A stretch of DNA of 64,000 nt from an uncultured Gammaproteobacteria bacterium (GTDB taxonomy: Bacteria > Patescibacteriota > Patescibacteriia > Magasanikbacterales > GWA2-37-8): NCBI GenBank assembly GCA_964478235.1, contig CAYZGX010000001.1, forward strand, positions 163,850-227,849, in the 5' to 3' direction. The number at the start of each line of letters is the position of its first letter. Positions within the stretch are counted from its first letter, which is position 1. The translations under genes were made by a program, and so were the position numbers. Shown here piece by piece: positions 1,985-60,724 of this stretch. The notes beneath the pieces are model-generated. The model saw only the letters and a list, made by a program, of their open reading frames with translations, did not search any database and was not told the DNA's origin.

Positions 1985-2058
1985 GCGCCTGTAGCTCAGT
2001 CGGTAAGAGCACTACCCTTATAAGGTAGGGGTCGGTGGTTCGAGTCCACCCCGGCGCA
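1985..2058 (+). tRNA. tRNA-Ile (anticodon UAU)
   Basis: Cloverleaf read by eye: acceptor GCGCCTG/CCGGCGC with one T6-C67 mismatch, D-arm GCTC-AGTCGGTAA-GAGC, anticodon stem CTACC/GGTAG with loop CTTATAA (TAT), T-arm GGTGG-TTCGAGT-CCACC. CCA is not encoded. Confidence 0.7.
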
Positions 2059-2071
2059 CACTATTCATACT

Positions 2072-16886: not shown

Positions 16887-16916
16887 ACCCGGTCGCAGAA
16901 AGCGATCGGGTTTTTA
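16887..16916. terminator. Intrinsic terminator after nrdG (also facing the 3' end of rnpB)
   Basis: Hairpin CCCGGTCGC-agaa-GCGATCGGG followed by TTTTT. Confidence 0.6.
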
Positions 16917-16918
16917 AG

Positions 16919-17361
16919 TGTTTACAGCAATAAGCCGAATTTTGTTCCCCTTACGGGGTGATAATCATTTCTCTTGCCGGTACATTGCTATACCGATCAT
17001 CTGCCCGTCCTAAAGCTTTTAAGCTGACAGATATACTAGCGAGCGAACTTTCCGAGGCTATACCTGATGTATAGACACGCTGCTCTTGCACCAGATAGGG
17101 TTTAGCACTTGCTCTCTATTGCTAAAGAGCCGAGTAGAGTAGCTGTAGTCTTAAGAACAACAACTCCCCTACACTTTTCACCTTTCATCCCGATTATAGC
17201 CGGAATTAGTATTGTCTCTGTGCCACTGTCCCGAAGCGGATATTGCTATACGCCTGGTGGAGGTTATCCACTATCCTTGTCCCAATAGGTAGCGATAAAA
17301 ATTGGGGGTGTTCGGACTTTCCTCGACGACCCAAAGGTCGGCGCGATTATCTACTGTAAAC
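16919..17361 (-). ncRNA. rnpB: RNase P RNA, bacterial type A
   Basis: The reverse strand contains CGAGGAAAGTCCGAACAC (CR-I/P4), GGATGAAAGGTGAAAAGTG (P10-P12 GGGUGAAA region) and ACAAAATTCGGCTTATTGCTGTAAAC (CR-V ACAGAAnnCGGCUUA), with a P1 pairing to the 5' GTTTACAG. A promoter lies immediately upstream. Confidence 0.8.
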
Positions 17362-17367
17362 GGGCGT

Positions 17368-29560: not shown

Positions 29561-30487
29561 TTATAACAGAAATTTTTTTACCATCTCTCGAACATTCTTC
29601 ACCTCATCTGGGTTCACCCATTGAATACGCTTATCTCGTTTAAACCAAGTAATCTGCCGTTTCGCGTAGCGGTGTGTATCTTGTTTAATTGATTCAACCG
29701 CGGCTTCCAAAGTCATAGTTTCGCTCAGATAAGCTCCAATTTGTTTATAGCCAATACTACTCATGCTTGGCAAATTCCAACCGTATTTTTGTTTAAGTAA
29801 TTTTTGAGTTTCTTTCACCAAACCATTTTCTATTTGAGCATCAATAGCCTTGTCTATGCGTGCGTATAAATCAGGCAATTCACGCTTTAACCCTATCTGC
29901 AGAGCCTCAAACAGTGGCTTAGCGAGCGAACGTTGTTCGGCAAACGATTCCCCCGTCAAAATCGCCACTTCAAGAGCGCGAATAACCCGGCGAGGATTCT
30001 GCCTATCAACCTGTTCAAAACTTTTTGGGTCAACTTTTTTAAGGAGTAGTAATAATTCCTCCAATGGTTTTTCTTCAAGCGAACGTCGAAGCGTTTTGTT
30101 TGGCGGAACAGACGGCATAGATAGATTGTCAACAATTGACCATACATAGAGCCCTGTCCCCCCAACAACAATCGGCACTTTTCCACGAGACACAATGTCA
30201 TTAATATGCGTTACCGCTCGCTCTTTATACTCTGCCAAACTCATCTCATGCCCCGGATCAACGCAATCCATCATATAGTGAGGAATGCCGTCAACCATAA
30301 ACACTTGCTCTCCACGAACTGCCTTCCACACACCATCGGGTTTGGCAGTGCCAATCGTCATTTTGGTATACACCTGACGCGAGTCAGCCGAGACAACTTC
30401 ACCGTTGAATTCTTTGGCTAATGACAAACCAAGAGCGGTTTTTCCGCTCGAGGTCGCGCCAACAATAACAATAATCTTTGGTAGCAT
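29561..30487 (-). CDS. miaA: tRNA dimethylallyltransferase
   Basis: MLPKIIVIVGATSSGKTALGLSLAKEFNGEVVSADSRQVY P-loop N-terminus and conserved MiaA body. Confidence 0.9.
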   Translation of the reverse strand: MLPKIIVIVGATSSGKTALGLSLAKEFNGEVVSADSRQVYTKMTIGTAKPDGVWKAVRGEQVFMVDGIPHYMMDCVDPGHEMSLAEYKERAVTHINDIVSRGKVPIVVGGTGLYVWSIVDNLSMPSVPPNKTLRRSLEEKPLEELLLLLKKVDPKSFEQVDRQNPRRVIRALEVAILTGESFAEQRSLAKPLFEALQIGLKRELPDLYARIDKAIDAQIENGLVKETQKLLKQKYGWNLPSMSSIGYKQIGAYLSETMTLEAAVESIKQDTHRYAKRQITWFKRDKRIQWVNPDEVKNVREMVKKFLL

Positions 30488-30497
30488 TTGGACTATT

Positions 30498-32252
30498 TTA
30501 ACGTGAAATTCGCTGTTTTGTTTCAGAGATTACTCGTTCTACAAAAGCAGCTTGTGTCATTTTGATTTGCTCTTCTTGACCACGAACGCGAATCATCCAT
30601 TCTTCGCCAGCCAATTCTTTGTCACCTACCACAACCACATACGGAATCTTTTGACCGGCGGCATTACGAACTTTTTTACCAATTGTTTCATCAGCACTAT
30701 CAATACCAACGCGAATACCTTGTTCATCAAGCTGTTTTTGAAGAGCAACTGCTCCTTCAACATGCTTTGACGACACCGGCAACAGCTGTACTTGTACTGG
30801 GGCCATCCATACCGGGAAAGCACCGGCATAGTGCTCGATCAGAATGCCCATAAAACGCTCTGGAGAGCCCACCAAAGCGCGATGGATCATAATTGGGTGT
30901 TTCTCCTGTCCATCAGAATCAACATAGGTCAAACCGAAACGTACTGGCATATTCATATCCAGCTGAATCGTCGAGATCTGCCATTCACGACCAATTGAGT
31001 CAGTCGCCATAATATCCATTTTCGGACCATAGAAGGCCGCTTCCCCAAGCGCTTCTTTAAAAGTAATACCGTTTCGTTCCAACAGTGCTCGGAGAATGCT
31101 TTCTGCCTTTTCCCAAGTACTATCTTCACCCAAATATTTTTCTTTATGTTCTGGATCGCGAAGCGACAAGCGAATCCAATAATTTAGACCATACGTGGTG
31201 AGCGCTTGCTTAATAGCAATAAGAACATTATTAAATTCTTCCTCAATTTGATCTTCGCGACAGAAACAATGGCCATCATCTTGAGAAAAACAACGTAGGC
31301 GGGTGAGGCCAGACAGCTCACCTGGTCGCTCATCACGATAGAGGTTCGAAAAATCAGCAAAACGAAGCGGTAAATCTTTATAACTGCGCTTCTGTGAAGC
31401 ATAAATCTGCGTATGCTGGGGGCAGTTCATTGGCTTCAGATAATACTGTTCATCAGAATAGTGCGACTTTACCTCAAGCATGTCATCTTTATATTTATCG
31501 TAGTGACCAGACACCTTGAATAGCTCTGCTTTGTTAATGTTCGGTGTGTGCACCTCTTGAAAACCAATCTTTTTGTTAAGTTCACGGGAATAATTAGCGA
31601 TAGCATTACGCACTGTCGTACCTTTTGGAGTAAAAAGTGGCATCCCTGGTCCAACCAACTCAGAGATAACAAACAAATCTAGTTCTTTGCCAAGCTTGCG
31701 ATGATCGCGCTTCTTGGCTTCTTCCAACATATTCAAATACACTGCCAACTCTTTGCGATTAGCAAACAACAAACCATAAATACGGGTCAACATTTCATTC
31801 TTTTCGTCCCCGCGCCAGTAGGCACCAGCCACTTTGTGGAGTTTCAAACCATCAAGCGGAATCTCTTTGGTGTTGTCAGTATGACCACCACGACACAAAT
31901 CAGTAAACGGACCAGATTCATACAGAGTAAGCGTTTTACTTTCGCCCGCAAACTCATTAATCAAATCTAATTTAAACGGCTGGTCTTTTTCAAACTGCTT
32001 TGCTTCATCCACCGACACTTCTTTGCGCACAAAAGCATGACCACCCTTAGCAATTTCCTTCATTTTTTCTTCAATTTTTTCCAAATCATTTTCCGAAATA
32101 GACACGCCAGCTGGAAATTTAAAATCGTAATAAAAACCAGTTTCAATCGTTGGGCCAATCGCCAACTTTGTTCCTGGATACAATTCCAAAACAGCAGCCG
32201 CCAACATATGAGCCGCTGAGTGTCGTGCGTTGTCTAGTTTTTGTACATCCAT
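30498..32252 (-). CDS. thrS: Threonine--tRNA ligase (lacks N-terminal TGS domain)
   Basis: 584 aa. Editing domain HSAAH motif, class II aaRS motifs, and anticodon-binding C-terminus. Confidence 0.95.
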   Translation of the reverse strand: MDVQKLDNARHSAAHMLAAAVLELYPGTKLAIGPTIETGFYYDFKFPAGVSISENDLEKIEEKMKEIAKGGHAFVRKEVSVDEAKQFEKDQPFKLDLINEFAGESKTLTLYESGPFTDLCRGGHTDNTKEIPLDGLKLHKVAGAYWRGDEKNEMLTRIYGLLFANRKELAVYLNMLEEAKKRDHRKLGKELDLFVISELVGPGMPLFTPKGTTVRNAIANYSRELNKKIGFQEVHTPNINKAELFKVSGHYDKYKDDMLEVKSHYSDEQYYLKPMNCPQHTQIYASQKRSYKDLPLRFADFSNLYRDERPGELSGLTRLRCFSQDDGHCFCREDQIEEEFNNVLIAIKQALTTYGLNYWIRLSLRDPEHKEKYLGEDSTWEKAESILRALLERNGITFKEALGEAAFYGPKMDIMATDSIGREWQISTIQLDMNMPVRFGLTYVDSDGQEKHPIMIHRALVGSPERFMGILIEHYAGAFPVWMAPVQVQLLPVSSKHVEGAVALQKQLDEQGIRVGIDSADETIGKKVRNAAGQKIPYVVVVGDKELAGEEWMIRVRGQEEQIKMTQAAFVERVISETKQRISR

Positions 32253-32253
32253 A

Positions 32254-32446
32254 TAATTAAACAGTTAAAAATATAAATAAAAATCCCGATACACCAAAAA
32301 AAGGTCTATCGGGGTCATTGTTAAGCACAAGGACGGTTCCACCCGAAAATTTCACTTAATACCTGTATTTGTACATACTGACAAGAGTGGTACCATATTC
32401 TGACCTGGTCAGAACTGGGCTGGTTCTTGTGTAAAACGTATGGGTA
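32254..32446 (-). promoter_or_regulatory. Putative T-box leader with intrinsic terminator upstream of thrS
   Basis: The minus-strand RNA contains AAAUUUUCGGGUGGAACCGUCC (T-box-like GGGUGGnACCG), then hairpin CCCGAUA...UAUCGGG plus a U-run just before the thrS ATG. ACC (Thr) codons occur in the upstream stem region. Confidence 0.4.
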
Positions 32447-32452
32447 TCCCCT

Positions 32453-32481
32453 AGTGTACAAAGGAGGAGTAGAACTGTCAA
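32453..32481 (-). promoter_or_regulatory. Sigma70-like promoter for thrS leader
   Basis: On the minus strand: TTGACA (32481-32476), 17-nt spacer, TACACT (32458-32453). Confidence 0.45.
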
Positions 32482-32512
32482 GAAAAAAGACTGCTCTTTG
32501 CAGTCTTTTTGT
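32482..32512. terminator. Bidirectional intrinsic terminator downstream of the 32520-33656 gene
   Basis: A-run, AGACTGC-tcttt-GCAGTCT, T-run. Confidence 0.55.
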
Positions 32513-32519
32513 ATACTTA

Positions 32520-33656
32520 TTATTTTACATTTTTAACCACCACTCGGATACGATCAGGCGAGGTCGGCGCCCCACTCATCCACGACGGAGAGAATTTTAC
32601 ATCCACCCCAACAACATGGTCGAGGCCGAGGACATATCGCTGGATTTCTTCCTTGGTTTTACTAACAAAATTGGTTGGTGCTAATTTTTCTACATTTGCA
32701 TCAAGGGTCACCAGGGCATCTTGAGCCACCTGAAGCTCGGCTGTGCCGTCTTTAAGACTGAACGACGAAACAGATACTGTTGGTTTTTTATCAGCTGCTA
32801 AAAATTTCTCTGCTGTAAGATCAATTTTACTAGAAACTTCACGGGCAATTCTATCGGTGAGATCTTTAGCGTTGTACATCACTACCACGAGGGTACTGGT
32901 ACCACTTACGTCAAAGGCAGCCACCTGATCACCAGCCGAAGCTGATGCTCTAGCGCTCTGACTAGCAATACTAACACTCACTTCTATCCCGTCGGTCGCT
33001 AATGTTTTCAAAAAGGCTTGTTTTACTTTTTCTTTATAATTATTTTCAGCGCTAGTGATATCGTCTTGGCTAAGCACCGCCACTGTCTGCGATCCACCAA
33101 TCATTGCTGCCTTACTTTCAGCGTAAATTGTCTTTTGTTTTACTTCGATCAAACCTGGGATAGTAAAGGTAGTCGGAGCAACATCACCGAGAGGACCCGG
33201 CTGGTCAGCATAGACCGGCACAGTCACCTGGCCTTGTGGTGGCACAGTGGTATTAACCGATAAACGGAATAACACGCCGGTTGGTGACAACAAACGAGTT
33301 GTTTTAACGAGCGGCTGAGCTAAACCGGTTTTATTATAAATAATCACTTCACCTTTTGAGGTACCAGCAACTGATTTAGTGCCAGTTGGCTGGTATTTTT
33401 CAGTATGAGAAAAAATAGTTGAGGTAACACTTCCCGGCATCGAGCCTGGCTTAACCCCTTCTTGGCTCAACGTAACGTTGAGAGTCACCTTTTTAGCATC
33501 TTCTTTAGCAACAATCGTAACTTCCGCTTTCTTGGACGTGATAAAAATAACCACTCCCAAAAGAGCAATGGTTATCAATAAAAATGACACTGCGACTATC
33601 TTATACCACTCCGGGGACGAGTCCCCCGAATTGGTTGACATACGATGTGTTATCAT
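32520..33656 (-). CDS. Hypothetical membrane-anchored protein (N-terminal TM, Ser/Thr/Val-rich extracytoplasmic domain)
   Basis: 378 aa. TM helix IVAVSFLLITIALLGVVIFI. No recognisable catalytic motif. Sits downstream of pilB. Confidence 0.5.
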   Translation of the reverse strand: MITHRMSTNSGDSSPEWYKIVAVSFLLITIALLGVVIFITSKKAEVTIVAKEDAKKVTLNVTLSQEGVKPGSMPGSVTSTIFSHTEKYQPTGTKSVAGTSKGEVIIYNKTGLAQPLVKTTRLLSPTGVLFRLSVNTTVPPQGQVTVPVYADQPGPLGDVAPTTFTIPGLIEVKQKTIYAESKAAMIGGSQTVAVLSQDDITSAENNYKEKVKQAFLKTLATDGIEVSVSIASQSARASASAGDQVAAFDVSGTSTLVVVMYNAKDLTDRIAREVSSKIDLTAEKFLAADKKPTVSVSSFSLKDGTAELQVAQDALVTLDANVEKLAPTNFVSKTKEEIQRYVLGLDHVVGVDVKFSPSWMSGAPTSPDRIRVVVKNVK

Positions 33657-33715: not shown

Positions 33716-35470
33716 TTATTCTGTCACCCGGAAGATTTCGTCAATAGTGGTAATCTTGTCGAGCGCCTTGAGTAAACCATCCTGAGCCATGGTCACCATG
33801 CCGTTTTTAACGGCAATTTCCTGAATAGTATACTCCGATAAGTTACCGCTCAGAATAATTTCTTCAATTTCCTTGTTCATCGTAAAAATCTCATAAATAC
33901 CAATACGACCCTTATAACCGATATTACTACACACCTCACAACCTTTGCCTTTATAAAAATGCAGGTTGTTCATATCGACATTCTTCTGCTCAGCTGGCGG
34001 CAAGGTGGTGAGTAGTTGTTTTACTTTTTCCATTTTCTCAGCTGGCGGAGTATCCTCTACAATGCAATTACTACAAATACGGCGCACCAAACGCTGGCCA
34101 ATCACCGAATTGAGGGACGGTGCCAAAAGAAACGGCCGAACCCCCATCGATAAAAAGCGCGGCAAGGCACCAGAAGCGCTATTGGTATGAATAGTAGATA
34201 ACATCAAATGACCAGTCAAAGCAGCCTGAATAGCAATTTCCGCCGTTTCTAAATCCCGGATTTCACCAACCATACAAATATCTGGATCTTGGCGTAAAAT
34301 ACTGCGTAAGCCTTTGGCAAAAGTATAATCTCGTCCTGGATCAACCTGACTTTGGTTAATCCCCTCCATTTTAATTTCAATCGGATCTTCCAGGGTAATA
34401 ATTTTTACCCCTGGTTTGTTGAGGGTGCGTAAAATTGCGTACAACGTCGTGGTTTTACCACTGCCAGTTGGACCAGTGGTAATAATCATACCATTTGGTC
34501 GTTCAATTTCTTTTTTGAGACGATCATGAGCGTCACCACGCAAACCAAGCTCATCAAACGTCACCCCTTTACTACCGCTGTGCAAAATACGCATAACCAC
34601 ACTCTCCCCATGAATAGTCGGAAGTGTAGAAACACGAATATCGAGACCGCCTGAGGGCAGCTGAAGGGTCACACGACCATCTTGCGGACGATCCGTCACG
34701 TTTAACTTTAACGCTGCCAAAAGCTTGATACGCGATATAAATCGTTTCCACTGCTCTTTTGGAAGCATGGTAATGTCGTGTAAAATACCATCAATACGAT
34801 AGCGAACTGCAATGCCACCCTCTTCAGCTTCAACGTGCATATCTGAAGAACCGAGCTTAATAGCTGACGCCACCATCAGTGTCAAAATATCAGTGATCGA
34901 AACATTAACAAAAGCTTGTTTTAAACTATCCAAGTTATTAATGCCTACATTATAGCGATTCATTTCTTCTTCGCTAATAATCACGTCTTTGGTGACTGGC
35001 TTATAAATAGGCAGCGTGGCGTAGAGAGCAATAATTTTCTGATAACTACGCTCAGAAATAAGGTAAACTTGAACATTAGAACCTTGTTTAGCCGCTAAAT
35101 CCGCTCTAATCTGTTCAACTCCTGGTGTGGCCGCGAGCGCCCCGATACGCGCCTGTTCATTGGAAAAATAAAAACAAATGGCTTTTTCTTTTTCAGCCAC
35201 CTCTTGAGGGATTGCTCGAAGAGCTTCCGAAGAAACTGGAAAATTTGTGAGATCAATGTAGGGCAGCCCTGCTTGTGCCGCCTGTGTTGCCACCTGTTCC
35301 TCTTTATCACGAACCGCAATTTCATCCATCTTATGCTGAAAGGCGTCACCGGCACTCGTGCCAGCCGGCGTATGCGAAGAAGGCGCCCCTGCTGGAGCAG
35401 TCGCCGCCGGCGCAGCGCCAGAGGCTGGCTTTTTTTTCACCAAATCATTAATCGATGGGAAATCAGACAT
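33716..35470 (-). CDS. pilB: Type IV pilus assembly ATPase PilB / GspE family
   Basis: GspII_E N-domain, Walker A GPTGSGKTTTLYA, Asp and His boxes, C-terminal tetracysteine CSNC...CEVC. Confidence 0.9.
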   Translation of the reverse strand: MSDFPSINDLVKKKPASGAAPAATAPAGAPSSHTPAGTSAGDAFQHKMDEIAVRDKEEQVATQAAQAGLPYIDLTNFPVSSEALRAIPQEVAEKEKAICFYFSNEQARIGALAATPGVEQIRADLAAKQGSNVQVYLISERSYQKIIALYATLPIYKPVTKDVIISEEEMNRYNVGINNLDSLKQAFVNVSITDILTLMVASAIKLGSSDMHVEAEEGGIAVRYRIDGILHDITMLPKEQWKRFISRIKLLAALKLNVTDRPQDGRVTLQLPSGGLDIRVSTLPTIHGESVVMRILHSGSKGVTFDELGLRGDAHDRLKKEIERPNGMIITTGPTGSGKTTTLYAILRTLNKPGVKIITLEDPIEIKMEGINQSQVDPGRDYTFAKGLRSILRQDPDICMVGEIRDLETAEIAIQAALTGHLMLSTIHTNSASGALPRFLSMGVRPFLLAPSLNSVIGQRLVRRICSNCIVEDTPPAEKMEKVKQLLTTLPPAEQKNVDMNNLHFYKGKGCEVCSNIGYKGRIGIYEIFTMNKEIEEIILSGNLSEYTIQEIAVKNGMVTMAQDGLLKALDKITTIDEIFRVTE

Positions 35471-54858: not shown

Positions 54859-55761
54859 TTAGAGCGAACTCCAGCGTGCAAAAATACCACACGGCAACAA
54901 ACGATCACTTTTTGACTCTTGAATAGTGAGTTCCCCCACTTCAATCTCGCCACCAAGGCCTTCTACCACTTCAGCCAGGTTATTTTTATACGCCAAAGCT
55001 GAATACCCAGAGGCATAGCCATTAATGAGTACAAAAAGAGGTTTATCGGATAAGATTTTTTTACACAAATCTAACAATATTGGAAAGTGTTCTTCAATTT
55101 TCCACACTTCGCCATTTGGACCATGTCCAAAAGCTGGCGGATCCATAATAATACCGTCATATTTCCGTCCACGCTTAATCTCGCGCTTCACAAATTCAAC
55201 AGCATCATCCAAAATCCAACGAATCGGCTTGGCGGCTAAATCCGAAGCAGTGGCATTGTCGCGCCCCCAGCCAATCGCCGTCTTTGAACCATCCACGTGG
55301 CACACTTCAGCGCCAGCTTGAGCAGCAGCTAAGCTCGCCCCGCCAGTGTAGCCAAACAAATTTAACACCTGCACCGTTCGTCCGGATTTTTTAATCTTCT
55401 CTCGCATCCACTGCCAATTTTGAGCTTGCTCAGGGAATAAACCAGTGTGTTTAAATGGTGATAATTTGATGTACATGCGCAATCCTGCAAAAGCAATATC
55501 CCAGCGCTCTGGGACCACAAATCGAGTTTTCCAAGCAGTGTCTTTACCCGAAGCCAAACCGCCTTTGGTCATCGTTTTTTCACGATTAAAATAAGCGTCG
55601 GCTTTGTTCCAAGTCGCTTCTGGCAAACGTTTTTTCCACAAAGCTTGTGGATCAGGGCGAGTGATGATGATTTTTCCATAGCGCTCCATTTTTTCCCCGT
55701 CGCCACTGTCTAGAAGTTCGTAATCGTCACTAGCTATCGTTGAAACAATTGAATAATCCAT
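54859..55761 (-). CDS. Class I SAM-dependent rRNA methyltransferase (RlmI/RlmK-like)
   Basis: Motif I VLNLFGYTGGASLAAAQAGA. RlmI-type C-terminal MTase with a short N-terminus. Confidence 0.75.
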   Translation of the reverse strand: MDYSIVSTIASDDYELLDSGDGEKMERYGKIIITRPDPQALWKKRLPEATWNKADAYFNREKTMTKGGLASGKDTAWKTRFVVPERWDIAFAGLRMYIKLSPFKHTGLFPEQAQNWQWMREKIKKSGRTVQVLNLFGYTGGASLAAAQAGAEVCHVDGSKTAIGWGRDNATASDLAAKPIRWILDDAVEFVKREIKRGRKYDGIIMDPPAFGHGPNGEVWKIEEHFPILLDLCKKILSDKPLFVLINGYASGYSALAYKNNLAEVVEGLGGEIEVGELTIQESKSDRLLPCGIFARWSSL

Positions 55762-55769
55762 ACAAAAAA

Positions 55770-56495
55770 TTATTTTCCAGTATACTCTATTTCACTTTCA
55801 TCTAATCGTTTGAGGCCTTCACCGCTGATTGCTTGTTCATGGGCGTGAGCGACCAAGCCGGGTAGGCGCCCTACCAAGAAAAACCCTTTAGCTAGTTCGG
55901 CTGGATACCCCATATCAAGAATAATCGCCGCCATCGCCCCATCGATATTGATCGGTAGTGGTTTAGAGGTTAACGATTGCAATTCTTTGCCAAAAGCTAC
56001 TGCTAAAGCACAATGTTGTTTATAAAAACCGGTCTTTTTTGCCAAAGCCAAGAGTGTTTTAGCTCGCTCATCGACAGCCAGCACCTTGTGCCCATAGCCC
56101 GGTACGCGAACCTTAGCATCTTTGAGTCGTTTTGCCAACCCTGCCAAGTCACGCTCGTGGATATACGCCTCAAAAAAATGCCCGGCACCCTCTATGGCCC
56201 CACCATGAAGCTCGCCGAGAGCTTGGACCCCAGCCGAGACCGCAGTATGAAGGCTATTACCCGTTGAAGCCACCGTGCGAGCAACTGTCGCCGACGGAGC
56301 GCCGACCCCATGATCAATTGCTGCCACAAACAACGCATTTAGCATTTTAGTTTGTTTAGCACTTGGCATTGATCCGGTCCACAAAAGAGCAATAACTTCA
56401 ACAAAACTCTTTTGTTGAATAAGAGCTGTTAATTTTTTACCACGAATACGTTCCCCTTCTTCGGTAATCTGCGTCAAAGCTGTTTTCCATTGCAT
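55770..56495 (-). CDS. Stand-alone citrate-synthase C-terminal-domain protein (citryl-CoA lyase-like)
   Basis: 241 aa. LGELHGGAIEGAGHF (HGGA catalytic His) and RVPGYGHKVLAVDERAK (GYGH catalytic His plus acidic residue) correspond to the citrate synthase catalytic triad region. The large N-terminal CS domain is absent. Confidence 0.7.
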   Translation of the reverse strand: MQWKTALTQITEEGERIRGKKLTALIQQKSFVEVIALLWTGSMPSAKQTKMLNALFVAAIDHGVGAPSATVARTVASTGNSLHTAVSAGVQALGELHGGAIEGAGHFFEAYIHERDLAGLAKRLKDAKVRVPGYGHKVLAVDERAKTLLALAKKTGFYKQHCALAVAFGKELQSLTSKPLPINIDGAMAAIILDMGYPAELAKGFFLVGRLPGLVAHAHEQAISGEGLKRLDESEIEYTGK

Positions 56496-56504
56496 ACAAA
56501 TACA

Positions 56505-57449
56505 TTAATAATTATAGCGATCATTATAACGATCTCGACGAAACACCCATTTAAGGATCAAATATAGAACAACGATACTCAGCACTGCTGCTGCCACCCG
56601 TTTTGGCTCATTATTATCAGTAATCACGAGCCAGCCTCGTTTCATTCCTTCAAAATAAGGCGCCGCTACAGCTGTATACTCTTTAAACTTGTAGTACCAA
56701 GCCTCGCCTTGGGCAATCGCTGACTTTGTTTGATTATACGCTGAGGTAATCCTGCCGGCGGTTGTTGTGATGGTTGAGGCAACATCTTCGGCCCTATTTA
56801 ACAGCTGACGGTTTTTATCCAACACTTCTTGGAAAGACGATTCGTCAGTTGTCGAAGTATTTTGCGGAGAAGCGGTGAGCATGGCCACAATTTTTTCACC
56901 CAAGACTTGTGGAGATAATTTCTTTTTTGCTCCGTCATCTACAACTTCCAAAGCAACCGACCCCAAAACAACATTGGCAATAGCCCCCGATCCAGCTGAG
57001 CCAGCAGCGGCCACCTGATCAACCGTTACTGGAGTAGCTGTTTTTGCTCCCAAAGTGAGCGGCGAGCCAGTAGAGCGGACTGTTTGTTCCAATGGAACCG
57101 TTGAAGTAGCTCCAGACAGCGTTCGTGCCAGAAGCGATTCCAATCGAGCTTGGACAGCATGCTCTCCTGAACTCGGTTGCCAGACAGCTTTAAGCTGAAC
57201 AGCCTGCTCTTTAGTCAAAGATGTAAAAGGGGTGGTGGTAATAAGCGTTTCATTGTCATAAAACCCCACCACACCATCAAGCAATGGATAGTCGTTATTA
57301 ATAACAACTGTATACAAAGTTATTGGTTGGGAAGCAGAAAAGGTTGTTGTCGAAAACCACAGACCAGTGCTTGGCACAAACCCAACAGTCGCCGCAGAAA
57401 CGGCGTTTGGGAATAAAAATAAAGCTAATACTACGAGAATACTACGCAT
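56505..57449 (-). CDS. Hypothetical secreted protein with signal peptide and C-terminal TM anchor
   Basis: Start at MRSILVVLALFLFPNAVSA, 4 nt after the upstream stop. Ser/Thr/Ala-rich body and C-terminal hydrophobic anchor AAAVLSIVVLYLILKWVF. Confidence 0.5.
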   Translation of the reverse strand: MRSILVVLALFLFPNAVSAATVGFVPSTGLWFSTTTFSASQPITLYTVVINNDYPLLDGVVGFYDNETLITTTPFTSLTKEQAVQLKAVWQPSSGEHAVQARLESLLARTLSGATSTVPLEQTVRSTGSPLTLGAKTATPVTVDQVAAAGSAGSGAIANVVLGSVALEVVDDGAKKKLSPQVLGEKIVAMLTASPQNTSTTDESSFQEVLDKNRQLLNRAEDVASTITTTAGRITSAYNQTKSAIAQGEAWYYKFKEYTAVAAPYFEGMKRGWLVITDNNEPKRVAAAVLSIVVLYLILKWVFRRDRYNDRYNY

Positions 57450-58332
57450 ACGGCTGTACCAATTGTACCAGGTCTTCATAGCGCTCGGCAATCATAACCC
57501 CAACTGCATTCAAAGCTTTTTCTTTTTCCTCAGCCCCCTGCCCTTTAGCGACAATCGCTCCGGCGTGGCCAACATTCATCCCTTCTGGAAAAAGAGTAGC
57601 AAATTTTCCACCGATATATATCGCGAGCGGCTTGGTAAATTCTTTTTTCTTAATCGCTTCAATAATTTCAAACTCATAACTTCCACCATGTTCACCAAAA
57701 ATAGCTACGACTTTTGTCGCCGCATCTTTTTCAAATAGACGAAGTAAATCAGCGTAGGTGGTCCCCATAAGTAGATCGCCACCTACATGGACAGCAGCGC
57801 TCTGACCCAAACCAGCTTGGCGCATTTGCCAAGACAACTCATTTGTCATGCCGCCAGAGCGAGAAATAACCCCCACACTTCCCGGCTGAAAAATCTTATC
57901 AACCAAAGGCCCGCCAACCACCCCGATTCTCCCCACACCCGGAACGATAAAACCAAGAGAACTCGGACCAATAATACGAATATTTTTTTCTTTAGCCGCA
58001 GCCAAACAATAGGCTGTGTCTTTAATTGGAATACGCTCTACAATAATATTAATCAATGGAATACCAGCTTCTACCGCCTCTAAAATAGCGGCTTTGGCAG
58101 CAAACGGAGGCACGTAAATCGCTGTGGTATTCACTTCTGGAAAATTTTCCAGGGCTTCGGCAACAGAATTAAAAACAGGGCGACCTTCCACTTCTTGTCC
58201 ACCTTTTTTAGGGGTCACACCACAGACCACTTGAGTATGGTATTCACTCATTGCTTTCACTGCTTTTTGCCCCTCTTTACCAGTGATACCCTGAATAAGA
58301 ACTTTTGTTTTATCAGACAATAAAATACCCAT
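57442..58332 (-). CDS. Succinyl-CoA synthetase alpha-subunit-like protein (CoA-binding plus phosphohistidine domain; SucD / CcsB / AclA N-terminal-like)
   Basis: VLIQGITGKEGQ CoA-binding motif, VISRSGGMTNE, and the phospho-His loop MNVGHAGAIV. Confidence 0.85.
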   Translation of the reverse strand: MGILLSDKTKVLIQGITGKEGQKAVKAMSEYHTQVVCGVTPKKGGQEVEGRPVFNSVAEALENFPEVNTTAIYVPPFAAKAAILEAVEAGIPLINIIVERIPIKDTAYCLAAAKEKNIRIIGPSSLGFIVPGVGRIGVVGGPLVDKIFQPGSVGVISRSGGMTNELSWQMRQAGLGQSAAVHVGGDLLMGTTYADLLRLFEKDAATKVVAIFGEHGGSYEFEIIEAIKKKEFTKPLAIYIGGKFATLFPEGMNVGHAGAIVAKGQGAEEKEKALNAVGVMIAERYEDLVQLVQPYA

Positions 58333-58333
58333 A

Positions 58334-59566
58334 CTAACGACCTAAAGAATGAAGATGGTTTTTTAAAACCTTGCTGGCCTGATCTATCTTTTTACGAAAA
58401 ACTGCTAATTGCCCTACATCATCAAGCGCCGTCTCATCAGACAGCGAGAGCATTTCCGCCAGTTCACTATCTATTTTTTTACCAAACATTTTATTAAACA
58501 AACCTTTCTGAGTAGCAAGCACTTTTTCTCTCAACTTCACATACTCGGCGTAAGCATCCTTGGCATACAATTGAGCTTCAGCGATTTTTCTTTTTTCTTG
58601 AGCTTGTTTTTTTTCTTGTTGGCGAGTGTCATAGCGTGACACAACATCACCAAGTAAAACATCGTCAGGAAAAGCTTCGGCCAAACGTTTCACCAAATGA
58701 CCGCGAACAACTTCTCCAGTTTGACTATGTAATTTTTGAATAATACTCAATAAATCATCTTTAGACTGAAGTTTACCCTGAAACCACCGACCCAAATCAG
58801 TTTTTGGCTTAAAATCAGCTAACGCATATTTTTTACCAGGCTCTGGAGTGACAATAGTTATAGTTAAATCTTCTGCTGGCACGTCAGGCACCCGAGCATC
58901 TCGCACACCGATAATCGCTCGACGATCTTGTAGTAAATCAAGCACCGAAGCCACCCCGCTACCAGCCCCAGAAGTCGGTAGTGTTATTTTATTAACATTC
59001 CCATCTTGAAGTGCGTCGATTGTCTGCAAAAGCATATCTCGGAAATGACCAGGCTGATAGACATGTTCAGAAATAAAAACTGGATCAGCCAAATGACGAT
59101 CCTGTTCACGTTTCATGCCTTCGTAATTAACCTGATCATTTTTAAGTGTAGCGAAAGACAAACCAAAACCAGACTCACGCTGTAATTGCTTTCGAGAAGC
59201 CCCCTGAACAACGAGCTCAGCCCGACTTGTCCCATCAAGCCCAGAAACAAGGGCTGTGTGAAGCACTGTCAAAACATCACCTTCACGTACCACCGCAGCA
59301 ACAGGCTCTCGACGTCCACCATCACCAACTAAACTTCGTGTGGTTTCAAAAACATAGGTGCCTGCAGGTTTTTCACCGACAAATTTCTGAAAATTACCAC
59401 CATCTCCTCGTCTTGAATATTCTATTCCCTGCCAGGTAGACGGAGAAATATCTTCACTAACCTCAAAAACACTAGTATCTTTTTTTTCAGACGAGGTAGT
59501 TTCTTTTTTTGCCTGAAATTCTTCATGAGCTTCAGGAACAAGCGGGGATTGATGTTCTCTAGGCAT
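58334..59566 (-). CDS. Hypothetical cytosolic protein (410 aa) translationally coupled between the sucC-like and sucD-like genes
   Basis: No recognised motif apart from the Gly-rich LPTSGAGSGVASVL. It lies 3 nt after the sucC-like stop and 1 nt before the sucD-like start. Confidence 0.5.
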   Translation of the reverse strand: MPREHQSPLVPEAHEEFQAKKETTSSEKKDTSVFEVSEDISPSTWQGIEYSRRGDGGNFQKFVGEKPAGTYVFETTRSLVGDGGRREPVAAVVREGDVLTVLHTALVSGLDGTSRAELVVQGASRKQLQRESGFGLSFATLKNDQVNYEGMKREQDRHLADPVFISEHVYQPGHFRDMLLQTIDALQDGNVNKITLPTSGAGSGVASVLDLLQDRRAIIGVRDARVPDVPAEDLTITIVTPEPGKKYALADFKPKTDLGRWFQGKLQSKDDLLSIIQKLHSQTGEVVRGHLVKRLAEAFPDDVLLGDVVSRYDTRQQEKKQAQEKRKIAEAQLYAKDAYAEYVKLREKVLATQKGLFNKMFGKKIDSELAEMLSLSDETALDDVGQLAVFRKKIDQASKVLKNHLHSLGR

Positions 59567-59569
59567 AGG

Positions 59570-60724
59570 CTAAACAATTAAACGAGCTAAAATACCAGCT
59601 GTATCGCTCATTGAAGTTTCTTTGCCAAAAAAATGCATCATAAGACCATTGCGCTCAGCGCACGATTTCATAAGCCGCATTCCTTCTTCTTCAAATGGAC
59701 CGGCTCGACGGATCACAATTGGATAGTTTGGTTTAATCTCATCAAGTGCGTCCACAATGCCATGAAATGTCTCGGCAATATTGGTGAAATTAGCTACTCC
59801 GCCGGCAATCCACAAACCTCGAAGCCCCGGCTTTGATAAAACAATTTTAGCCAGCTCGCGCACCTTTTCACGTGGCGGATTACCAGAATATTCCGTATAA
59901 TTTGCCGGCTTAAGACCGGCCTTAATAAGCGCATCCATATTAGCAATACTCGCTCCCCCACCAGAAAACAAAATAGCAATATCCCCGTCCATTTCAATAT
60001 ATTTACCAGCTGTTCCACGGTAATACCCCTCACCTTCATCAATCTTTTTTACTGCCACCTCTCGCTCGGTTGGCAACCGCCCCATCATGGTACGTGGCTC
60101 AAGCTGGCTCCACTCTTCATGACGATAAAAAGCATCTTCATCGAGAGCAATTTTAGCATCCGCAGCCACATACCTGCCATCGGTTGTGATAATAAGTGGA
60201 TTAATTTCAATTTGACGAGTGTCCTCGGCTAAAAAACAATTCCAGATTTTTTGAAAAATATCACTCTTTGGCAACAAAGGGCTCAACACCTCTGATACAC
60301 GAATATCAAGTGGTGCTCGGACAATTTTTTCAGCCGACACCTCTTCAATATCCATACCACCCTCACGAGAATAGAGTATCATTGGTTGCTGCGAGGTAGT
60401 GTTATAGACTATTGAAACATATTCTTCTCGAGCAATAACTATTTTTTCTTCTACAAGTGCCGAAGCAACATGCTGACCACGAATCGTAGTGGTAAAAAGC
60501 TGGTTGCACGCTCGAACAACCTCGTCAGCTGACGAACAAAAAACTATACCATTATTTTTTCCGCGCTTACCAGACAATACTTGCGCCTTAACAACCACCT
60601 CAGAGATGCCAAGCGCGCTATACAAAGAAGCAGCATCATCACCACGACGAACAACAACTCCTTTTGGGGTAGTAATACCGTATTTTTGAAGTAATTGCTT
60701 GCCTTCAAATTCGTATAAATTCAT
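59570..60724 (-). CDS. Succinyl-CoA synthetase beta-subunit-like protein (ATP-grasp; SucC / CcsA / AclB-like)
   Basis: MNLYEFEGKQLLQKYGITTP, ATP-grasp lysine VVKAQVLSGKRGK, and ligase-CoA domain SGGGASIANMDAL...WIAGGVANFTNIA. Confidence 0.85.
   Translation of the reverse strand: MNLYEFEGKQLLQKYGITTPKGVVVRRGDDAASLYSALGISEVVVKAQVLSGKRGKNNGIVFCSSADEVVRACNQLFTTTIRGQHVASALVEEKIVIAREEYVSIVYNTTSQQPMILYSREGGMDIEEVSAEKIVRAPLDIRVSEVLSPLLPKSDIFQKIWNCFLAEDTRQIEINPLIITTDGRYVAADAKIALDEDAFYRHEEWSQLEPRTMMGRLPTEREVAVKKIDEGEGYYRGTAGKYIEMDGDIAILFSGGGASIANMDALIKAGLKPANYTEYSGNPPREKVRELAKIVLSKPGLRGLWIAGGVANFTNIAETFHGIVDALDEIKPNYPIVIRRAGPFEEEGMRLMKSCAERNGLMMHFFGKETSMSDTAGILARLIV

Follow-up and report, generated by a model that had tools for sequence, protein, structure and literature searches.

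We describe here the leader of thrS, the threonyl-tRNA synthetase (ThrRS) gene that lies on the minus strand of a 64,000-nucleotide stretch of bacterial DNA (contig CAYZGX010000001.1; the whole stretch is called the window below). In our opinion this leader is very probably an attenuator of transcription that belongs to the T-box type and senses tRNA-Thr specifically. T-boxes serve as the model for RNAs able to read a tRNA's identity as well as its charging state. The present leader and its relatives have both alternative folds, and these are conserved, with covariation in helix A2 of the antiterminator and in the terminator; a threonine codon keeps its identity and its position; the element occurs in exclusive linkage with thrS; and it is continuous with leaders that Rfam does recognise as T-boxes. 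Binding of tRNA, sensing of its charging state and read-through into the gene are what we infer. A T-box on thrS had been proposed tentatively in an initial annotation of this DNA, and the antiterminator fold, the relatives, the threonine codon, the linkage to thrS and the Rfam matches of sister leaders all support that proposal.

Alternative folds and the threonine codon of the thrS leader

The 3' half of the leader contains the T-box core GGGUGGAACC, and the core-like string AAAUUUUCGGGUGGAACCGUCC quoted in the initial annotation is indeed present at about 32352-32331. Such a motif proves nothing by itself. The exact core GGGTGGNACCG occurs once in the window; if one mismatch is tolerated, 4 matches are found where 1.9 are expected. 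The bare core is therefore not significant alone, and the case has to rest on structure and comparison. The structural elements of this half are the following, all on the minus strand.

32309-32346: antiterminator (the discriminator core)
32346-32342: 5' strand of helix A1, UCGGG
32341-32335: 7-nucleotide (nt) T-box bulge, UGGAACC
32334-32314: helix A2, GUC.UUGU-GCUUA-ACAA.GAC
32313-32309: 3' strand of A1, CCCGA, which doubles as the 5' strand of the terminator
32268-32313: intrinsic terminator with its U-tract, overlapping A1 at CCCGA
32313-32285: terminator hairpin CCCGAUAGACC-U7-GGUGUAUCGGG, that is CCCGAUA-G-ACC-U7-GGU-G-UAUCGGG, -17.6 kcal/mol
32284-32268: U-rich tract AUUUUUAUUUAUAUUUU

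If the RNA is ended before the 3' strand of the terminator, the antiterminator consisting of A1, the UGGAACC bulge and A2 is the unconstrained minimum-free-energy fold, at -11.3 kcal/mol. The full-length RNA prefers the terminator, at -17.6 versus -11.3 kcal/mol. The two folds are mutually exclusive, as the T-box proposal demands, since the 3' strand of A1 is the 5' strand of the terminator. The review PMC7583486 describes just this interplay of antiterminator and terminator for T-boxes. The terminator described initially is thus real; its distance from the start codon, given as about 25 nt, needs correction, because the hairpin ends 33 nt and the U-rich tract about 16 nt before the thrS ATG.

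The 5' half of the leader is the part that would decode the tRNA. Its elements, again on the minus strand, are these.

32374-32442: decoding domain (a truncated Stem I), made of P1a, an internal loop and P1b
32442-32438 with 32378-32374: helix P1a, CAUAC paired with GUAUG
32437-32431 opposite 32380-32379: asymmetric internal loop, GUUUUAC opposite CA
32430-32425 with 32386-32381: helix P1b, ACAAGA paired with UCUUGU
32392-32423: lineage-specific insert in the specifier loop, made of CCAGCCCAG, hairpin P2, U and AUGGU
32423-32415: invariant CCAGCCCAG
32414-32398: variable hairpin P2, UUCUGAC-CAG-GUCAGAA
32397, then 32396-32392: a single U, then AUGGU
32391-32389, then 32388: specifier ACC, then the conserved purine A
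32347-32373: linker UACAAAUACAGGUAUUAAGUGAAAUUU, with the conserved A-rich string (A)AAGUGAAA; the Stem III hairpin is absent

The specifier loop accordingly reads A-CCAGCCCAG-(hairpin)-U-AUGGU-ACC-A-C, and ACC-A stands directly 5' of the 3' strand of P1b, past an A.C closing mismatch. This placement agrees with the rule used by TBDB, in which the codon plus one purine occupies the 3' end of the specifier bulge (PMC7778990). An ACC in the upstream stem region had been pointed out before; it is the one contained in GGUACCACU at 32394-32386, and the specifier loop with ACC or ACU plus a purine that a threonine T-box should have is found in the window as ACC-A at the 3' edge of the loop and in the relatives with either ACC or ACU. 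Hairpin P2 is the only distal element. It measures 9-62 nt among the relatives, and its loop sequence is not conserved. Apical-loop specifiers, the 7-nt bulge and pairing of UGGN with NCCA are all established features of T-boxes (PMC7583486; PMC7778990).

The surroundings of the leader are as follows.

32453-32481, minus strand: sigma-70-type promoter, TTGACA 32481-32476, 17 nt, TACACT 32458-32453
32505-32483, minus strand: intrinsic terminator of the upstream gene for a 378-amino-acid (aa) protein, GACUGCAAAGAGCAGUC followed by U6
30498-32252, minus strand: thrS, 584 aa, with Pfam domains tRNA_SAD, tRNA-synt_2b and HGTP_anticodon; the N-terminal TGS domain is absent
29561-30487: miaA, downstream of thrS

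The promoter-like site TTGACA-N17-TACACT had been seen in the initial annotation and is present at 32481-32453; it matches the consensus at 10 of 12 positions and leaves a leader of about 195 nt before the thrS ATG. Because the upstream gene has a terminator of its own, the thrS leader is a separate transcription unit. The interval 32253-32520 to which the element was first assigned does hold the leader, and it also takes in this upstream terminator. The leader folds better than its shuffled versions (z = -3.65; 0 of 200 shuffles equally good). The gene is the sole synthetase among the 24 large open reading frames (ORFs) annotated in the window. The best homologues of its product are proteins of Candidatus Magasanikbacteria and of other Patescibacteria (the candidate phyla radiation, CPR), which bears out the earlier remark that the lineage would be an unusual one for a T-box on thrS.

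The way such a leader would work can be outlined as follows. Transcription would start a few nucleotides before P1a, and the short Stem I (P1a, internal loop and P1b) would present ACC and the adjoining purine to the GGU anticodon of tRNA-Thr. If this tRNA is uncharged, its 3' NCCA end would pair with UGGA in the 7-nt bulge, the A1/A2 antiterminator would be stabilised, and RNA polymerase would read into thrS and probably into miaA too. With tRNA-Thr charged or absent, the terminator, being the more stable fold, would form by way of CCCGA, and transcription would stop at the U-tract upstream of the ATG.

Relatives, covariation and sister leaders

The comparison begins with a survey of 80 thrS loci from species-representative genomes (L numbers below denote individual loci or their leaders). 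In 17 of the 80 loci, all CPR-like, the core GGGUGGAACC, with at most one mismatch, lies upstream of thrS at a distance of up to about 330 nt; it was not found at the Bacteroidota thrS loci among them, save for two imperfect and probably chance matches. Most of the 17 CPR leaders have a short hairpin with the 7-nt apical loop CUACCAA (ACC plus A), and most of these terminal-loop leaders have a clear Stem III, followed by GAAACU right before the T-box. The 5' half of the window type is shared by L015 and L021, and then by L081 and L082, which are closer relatives obtained by an exact-protein look-up; in the protein-found L015 the specifier is ACU.

A metagenome search that leaves the codon free, with the pattern CCAGCCCAG N6-36 ATGGT NNN A N34-64 GGGTGGNACC, returned 32 stretches. 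Thirty are leaders and 2 are GC-rich chance matches without any other leader feature, in agreement with the few chance matches estimated. The free triplet in the 30 leaders is ACC in 29 and ACU in 1, other triplets being confined to the 2 GC-rich chance matches, and the free base of the bulge is A in all of them (UGGA). The total set comprises 31 distinct window-type leaders, from CPR/Patescibacteria (Magasanikbacteria-like) DNA. Where there is enough DNA to judge, thrS follows downstream on the same strand in 26 of 26 cases (22 directly, 4 with one intervening gene), and the ThrRS proteins of the relatives are 43-100% identical to that of the window.

The signals around the decoding and discriminating parts are likewise kept. 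In 31/31 leaders TTGACA precedes the insert anchor by about 50 nt, and the full -35/-10 pattern is present in 23/31. As the -10 element ends 19-32 nt before the insert anchor among these leaders, the transcript should start at P1a, with no room for a long Stem I. The canonical bulged antiterminator is obtained for 30/31 leaders when the RNA ending before the 3' strand of the terminator is folded without constraint, and a terminator hairpin plus U-run is present in 30/31, the exception ending at a contig edge. The mean energies across the relatives are -14.6 kcal/mol for the antiterminator versus -18.4 kcal/mol for the terminator. Four leaders, of both types (L020 at about 2838-2910, L092, L100 and L117), share a 40-100 nt insertion in helix A2, CUUCG-hairpin-CUUCGGnCCGGCAAGCCGUC. 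Insertions in A2, such as stem Sa, have been noted for some T-boxes (PMC7583486), and those of the four leaders are reminiscent of them.

Covariation supports the decoding half as well as the two competing folds. In P1b, pairs 2-6 are canonical in 31/31 leaders with compensatory changes at each position, by an anchor-based count. The register is specific (0.77 canonical, including two flanking positions, versus 0.39-0.51 when shifted), and according to a pair-count tool run on a MAFFT alignment of 30 sequences P1b is 100% paired, each of its 5 pairs having compensatory changes. P1a was tested in a fixed register on the 13 sequences that share the loop: 97% of pairs are canonical versus 20-46% when the strands are slid, and the helix differs in nearly every sequence. 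This fixed-register test was substituted for a comparison of the longest helix with shuffles, which is uninformative in AT-rich RNA (6.5 vs 5.8 base pairs). For the decoding half as a whole the covariation in the MAFFT alignment is 0.643 versus 0.235 in shuffled alignments, none of 500 reaching 0.643, and 0.09-0.17 when slid. The insert hairpin P2 reaches 88% pairing, and all 5 of its tested pairs show compensatory changes. The antiterminator is 89% paired, with 5 pairs of A2 showing compensatory changes, and pairing in the terminator amounts to 96%, 7 of its 11 pairs having compensatory changes and its covariation being 0.575 versus 0.27.

The internal loop of the decoding half was compared with the kink-turn (K-turn, GA motif) that class I T-boxes have at the base of Stem I. 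Most relatives have the asymmetric loop GUUUGUAC/GGA, and the window has GUUUUAC/CA. The 3' strand of the relatives' loop, GGAGC, resembles the 3' strand of a canonical K-turn; the 5' strand is without UGA. We considered whether the J5 loop (GUUUGUAC) forms a pseudoknot with a conserved ACAAAUU and rejected this: J5 is changed without compensation in the window and in L082, and one subgroup has no J5.

The relationship of the window type to the terminal-loop type becomes clear from a hybrid, L086/L087. With the window type it shares P1a, the internal loop (GUUUGUAC/GGA) and the CGGGUGGAACCGUCC...GGACCCCG discriminator, while its P1b is capped by CUACCAA and the insert is absent. Because the hybrid combines both, we regard the two types as homologous. 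The window type corresponds to the terminal-loop type into whose loop, after position 1 and before position 2, CCAGCCCAG-hairpin-N-AUGG has been inserted, with U-ACC-A kept.

This matters for the question of T-box identity, because several terminal-loop leaders are matched by the Rfam T-box model, RF00230, at a permissive threshold:

L063: 49.3 bits, E 9e-8
L044: 39.5 bits, E 7.5e-6
L062: 37.6 bits, E 9.3e-5
L007: 36.1 bits, E 2.3e-4
L013: 35.4 bits, E 3.3e-4
L045: 28.5 bits, E 0.02

These six sub-threshold matches span the full model. The alignments of L044, L062 and L063 match the flanks of Stem III, the T-box and the antiterminator, with about 75 nt of Stem I deleted to 4-8 nt; among these three the K-turn motif (GCGAUGA...GGAGC) is aligned cleanly in L063 only. 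The Magasanikbacteria-like leaders without Stem II and Stem III, among them L020, L086/L087 and the window type, fall below detection by RF00230, and the terminal-loop leader L085 has lost Stem II and Stem III likewise. The sequences suggest a series that leads from widespread CPR T-boxes with a truncated Stem I, through a reduced Magasanikbacteria-like form, to the form of the window with its insert.

Linkage to thrS was also approached from the opposite direction. A strict screen of about 894 kb of DNA (mostly CPR, plus the Bacteroidota loci), requiring a 4-nt A1 complement and a terminator with U-run, returned 46 T-box-like elements, all of them leaders of thrS operons with UGGA; since about half of the terminal-loop leaders already known escaped this screen, it cannot exclude elements on other genes. 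In some loci a GNAT acetyltransferase or phosphoribosyltransferase gene stands between leader and thrS (L085, L091, L101, L119, L088-L090). Thus L088-L090 have a window-type leader before a phosphoribosyltransferase-thrS pair, at 952-1492, and L085 has a terminal-loop leader before an acetyltransferase-thrS pair, at about 905-1434, where an automatic gene call overruns the leader. Judging from this arrangement, such genes would be co-regulated with thrS by the charging of tRNA-Thr. In a locus labelled Anaerolinea (L029) GGGUGGAACC lies at about 2866, upstream of thrS, and a tRNA-Val(GAC) gene is found just upstream, at 2580-2654; tRNA-Val(GAC) also precedes thrS in Microgenomates/Roizmanbacteria loci without T-box core (L016, L023, L036, L043).

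Departures from known T-boxes and other explanations

A number of observations weigh against the T-box interpretation and need to be considered together. First, RF00230 has no match anywhere in the window at its gathering score (93 bits), nor in 501 nt around the leader at E<=10, so the covariance-model scan proposed as a check in the initial annotation came out negative. Such a negative scan was to refute the T-box only together with the failure to draw a competing antiterminator, and the antiterminator does form in the unconstrained fold. Window-type leaders reach 18 bits (E 2.5) at best, and even the 17 CPR loci have no match at gathering. Second, parts regarded as important are missing. 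Transcriptional T-boxes "generally require" a long Stem I with a platform that binds the tRNA elbow; Stem III, with its purine string 5'-RRRxG...AA-3', is called "indispensable", and is part of the discriminator domain according to Li et al. 2019; and the G.U wobble pair with which A2 closes serves as the primary steric sensor for the aminoacyl group (all PMC7583486). The window type lacks the elbow-binding distal platform of Stem I. In the alignment of window-type leaders the stretch from P1a to the T-box is without any conserved helix that could be a Stem III hairpin, and neither Stem II nor a pseudoknot is evident in it. The closing pair of A2 is G-C, not G.U, in 31/31 leaders (25/25 in the tool count). 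Third, 24 of the 31 leaders were found with a search pattern that contains CCAGCCCAG, AUGGU and the core, so the invariance of these three is partly built in; the insert anchors are identical in the 7 protein-found and in the 24 pattern-found leaders. Covariation, finally, cannot support A1 or the bulge because both are invariant.

That the leader is shorter than typical T-boxes was stated from the beginning and is correct, because it lacks the distal part of Stem I as well as Stems II and III. In terminal-loop CPR leaders outside the Magasanikbacteria-like group the Stem III hairpin plus GAAACU is present, and A2 is closed by G.U in several other CPR leaders, for example L001, L007, L013, L040, L044 and L052. 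An AAAAG-Y-K-AAA-like string is found in the linker of 28/31 window-type leaders, and it may be that the linker purines survive without the hairpin. A Stem III formed by AAAUU and AAUUU was tried and rejected, as L081 and L107 are unable to form such a helix.

A further prediction concerns the tRNA itself. As N is A in every UGGN bulge, the discriminator base of the cognate tRNA-Thr is predicted to be U73, and the prediction is specific, since the five tRNAs of the window all have A73. A tRNA-Thr gene is absent from the 5 tRNAs of the window and from the approximately 86-120 collected loci, which again does not help the T-box interpretation. The flanks are also without one: walking about 9 kb to the left of the window reached the nusG-rplK cluster and met no tRNA, about 6.5 kb to the right contains no tRNA either, and tblastn of the collected DNA found no gene for elongation factor EF-Tu (tuf). 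Among the tRNAs present there is a tRNA-Ile with anticodon UAU (window 1985-2059, plus strand; found by ARAGORN and by the Rfam tRNA model at 69 bits). A tRNA-Ile(UAU) is an uncommon bacterial way to read AUA, and it suggests that the genome may not depend on the route by way of lysidine (TilS).

Comparison with known systems helps to judge the balance. With class I T-boxes (RF00230) the window leader shares the T-box sequence GGGUGGNACC, an antiterminator of A1, 7-nt bulge and A2 that competes with an intrinsic terminator, a codon with its purine located at the 3' edge of the Stem I loop, and an aminoacyl-tRNA synthetase gene under its control; thrS is in fact among the commonest T-box-regulated genes in Firmicutes (PMC2494555). 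The closest class I form is the reduced glyQS type, which is likewise without Stem II. The window leader differs in having no T-loop platform, no canonical 5' strand of the K-turn and no Stem III hairpin, in closing A2 by G-C, in the insert of its specifier loop, in an Rfam score below reporting, and in a CPR/Patescibacteria host instead of Firmicutes. Class II T-boxes, with an ultrashort Stem I, act on translation and are known from actinobacterial ileS (Sherwood et al. 2015, cited from the review PMC7583486); apical-loop specifiers in short Stem I T-boxes are so far translational and actinobacterial (PMC7583486). A short Stem I without elbow platform is common to these and to our leaders, and the apical 7-nt loop reappears as CUACCAA in the sister leaders and in L086, whereas in the window the loop is split by CCAGCCCAG-hairpin-AUGG with U-ACC-A kept. 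On the other hand, all leaders here end in a terminator plus U-run rather than in sequestration of a Shine-Dalgarno sequence, and the S-turn of Stem II and the IIA/B pseudoknot that compensate in ileS T-boxes are not evident in the window type. The threonine operon leader (RF00506), a case of leader-peptide attenuation, resembles our leader in that threonine-related control is exerted through an intrinsic terminator of the leader; the window leader is without a Thr-rich leader peptide.

Weak matches to other Rfam families do not change this picture. Those to Trp_leader, STnc230 and C0465 near the leader (E<=10) merely align terminator hairpins, and the Trp_leader and small-RNA matches cover only the hairpin of the upstream gene at 32505-32483 plus its U-run. 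Directly 3' of thrS there are also weak Thr_leader matches on both strands in L040 (4712-4785) and L052 (4710-4810). They score 29-34 bits, below the gathering score of 55 bits, and appear to be terminator hairpins that serve both directions rather than threonine leaders.

The alternative that survives best, improbable though we consider it, keeps the descent from a T-box and gives up its sensing of aminoacylation. The leader would then still bind tRNA-Thr (through the codon and perhaps NCCA), or would be a constitutive or polymerase-speed-dependent attenuator, and it would report the total level of tRNA-Thr or the growth rate, not charging, being unable to tell charged from uncharged tRNA for want of Stem III, its purine latch and the G.U steric gate. 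The absence of the elbow-binding platform fits this, as does the absence of the Stem III hairpin from both the window type and the Magasanikbacteria-like terminal-loop leaders L020, L085 and L086, and the G-C pair that closes A2 in 31/31 leaders stands in place of the G.U steric sensor (PMC7583486). However, UGGAACC and the GGG/CCC of A1 are strictly invariant across relatives whose ThrRS is as little as 43% and up to 100% identical, and because of this invariance we argue that the contact with the acceptor end is still under selection. The A-rich string that resembles the purines flanking Stem III is kept in 28/31 leaders. Further, some Rfam-recognised terminal-loop CPR leaders close A2 by A-U, U-A or G-C, so G.U may not be obligatory.

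The operator of E. coli thrS deserves comment because the gene is the same and because the leader RNA in both cases uses the logic of tRNA-Thr recognition. It is established that E. coli thrS is autoregulated through mimicry of the anticodon arm of tRNA-Thr. Applied to the window, this would mean that ThrRS binds a mimic of that arm in the leader and represses itself, and the insert does hold UGGUA (within AUGGUACCA), the core of the anticodon loop of tRNA-Thr(GGU). We nevertheless give this explanation very little credence. GGU lies on a junction strand, not in a 7-nt hairpin loop, and it can pair with the upstream CCA; the terminal-loop sister leaders have no GGU and display the codon ACC instead; a terminator separates the element from the start codon, and there is no operator overlapping the ribosome-binding site; and the T-box core, the bulge and the alternative folds would be left unexplained. 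The E. coli operator binds a protein, acts on translation and has an anticodon-like loop, whereas the window leader displays a codon, a T-box bulge and a terminator.

We consider it just as remote that the leader works by a leader peptide starting from the AUG in AUGGUACCA, or that it resembles a T-box by chance beside an ordinary terminator: AUG GUA CCA ... does open a 14-codon ORF in the window, but this has two Thr codons and no run of them, is unconserved in length and frame among the relatives, is preceded by no Shine-Dalgarno sequence, and its substitutions compensate P1b pairing rather than being synonymous, while chance, for which the 4 core matches against 1.9 expected might speak, is excluded because 31 conserved leaders show covariation and exclusive linkage to thrS.

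Returning to the T-box interpretation, one may ask what the insert does. CCAGCCCAG can pair locally, its CCA with the UGG of AUGGU, at a predicted -4.3 kcal/mol. Its CCA-G-CCC is also complementary to GGG-UGG of the T-box, in a duplex with a one-base bulge and a predicted -8.9 kcal/mol. The comparison cannot decide between the two pairings, because both partners are invariant in either. It is possible, and we offer this only as a tentative idea that we ourselves regard as rather doubtful, that CPR bacteria carry previously unrecorded transcriptional T-boxes on thrS, that the Magasanikbacteria-like branch has pared them down to codon, bulge and terminator, and that CCAGCCCAG-hairpin-AUGG supplies the missing function. 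The insert module might be a new contact to the tRNA; alternatively, it might be an internal mimic of the CCA end of the tRNA that would hold the T-box closed until the tRNA displaces it.

Other features of the window and meaning for CPR bacteria

Upstream of the leader, at 32520-33656 (minus strand), lies the gene of the 378-aa protein, which has no Pfam match, between a PilB-like T2SSE ATPase gene (33716-35470, minus strand) and thrS. The order T2SSE, 378-aa protein, thrS, miaA is kept in relatives. The RNase P RNA of the window (class A, 16915-17362, minus strand, 141 bits) has several sizeable insertions relative to the model. A cluster that resembles ATP-citrate lyase or citryl-CoA synthetase/lyase occupies approximately 55500-60724 (minus strand) and positions 9787-14741 of L124. 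Its members are a protein with ATP-grasp_2 and Citrate_bind (59570-60724), a 410-aa protein without Pfam match (58334-59566), a CoA_binding/Ligase_CoA protein, a 324-aa protein without assignment and a short Citrate_synt protein. One would not expect such a cluster in a CPR genome of reduced metabolism.

The leaders described here are missed by standard pipelines because the Rfam gathering score is 93 bits and the scope of the TBDB class II model is limited, this model having been run only on Actinobacteria and on sequences detected by class I (PMC7778990). A full-text search found, among the papers covered by it, none that links T-boxes with CPR, Patescibacteria or Parcubacteria, which is not a proof of novelty. 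Alignments of these leaders could seed a covariance model for metagenome annotation.

To our knowledge, almost nothing is known about gene regulation in CPR/Patescibacteria, and the leaders would extend T-box regulation to these bacteria. A conserved family with covariation, of which codon, 7-nt bulge and terminator are all that is left, in organisms with very small genomes, is a natural minimal system for testing which parts of a T-box are required and by what they can be replaced. If it is true that this T-box has been pared down and that the insert supplies the missing function, the minimal requirements for the sensing of tRNA charge by RNA would need to be revised.

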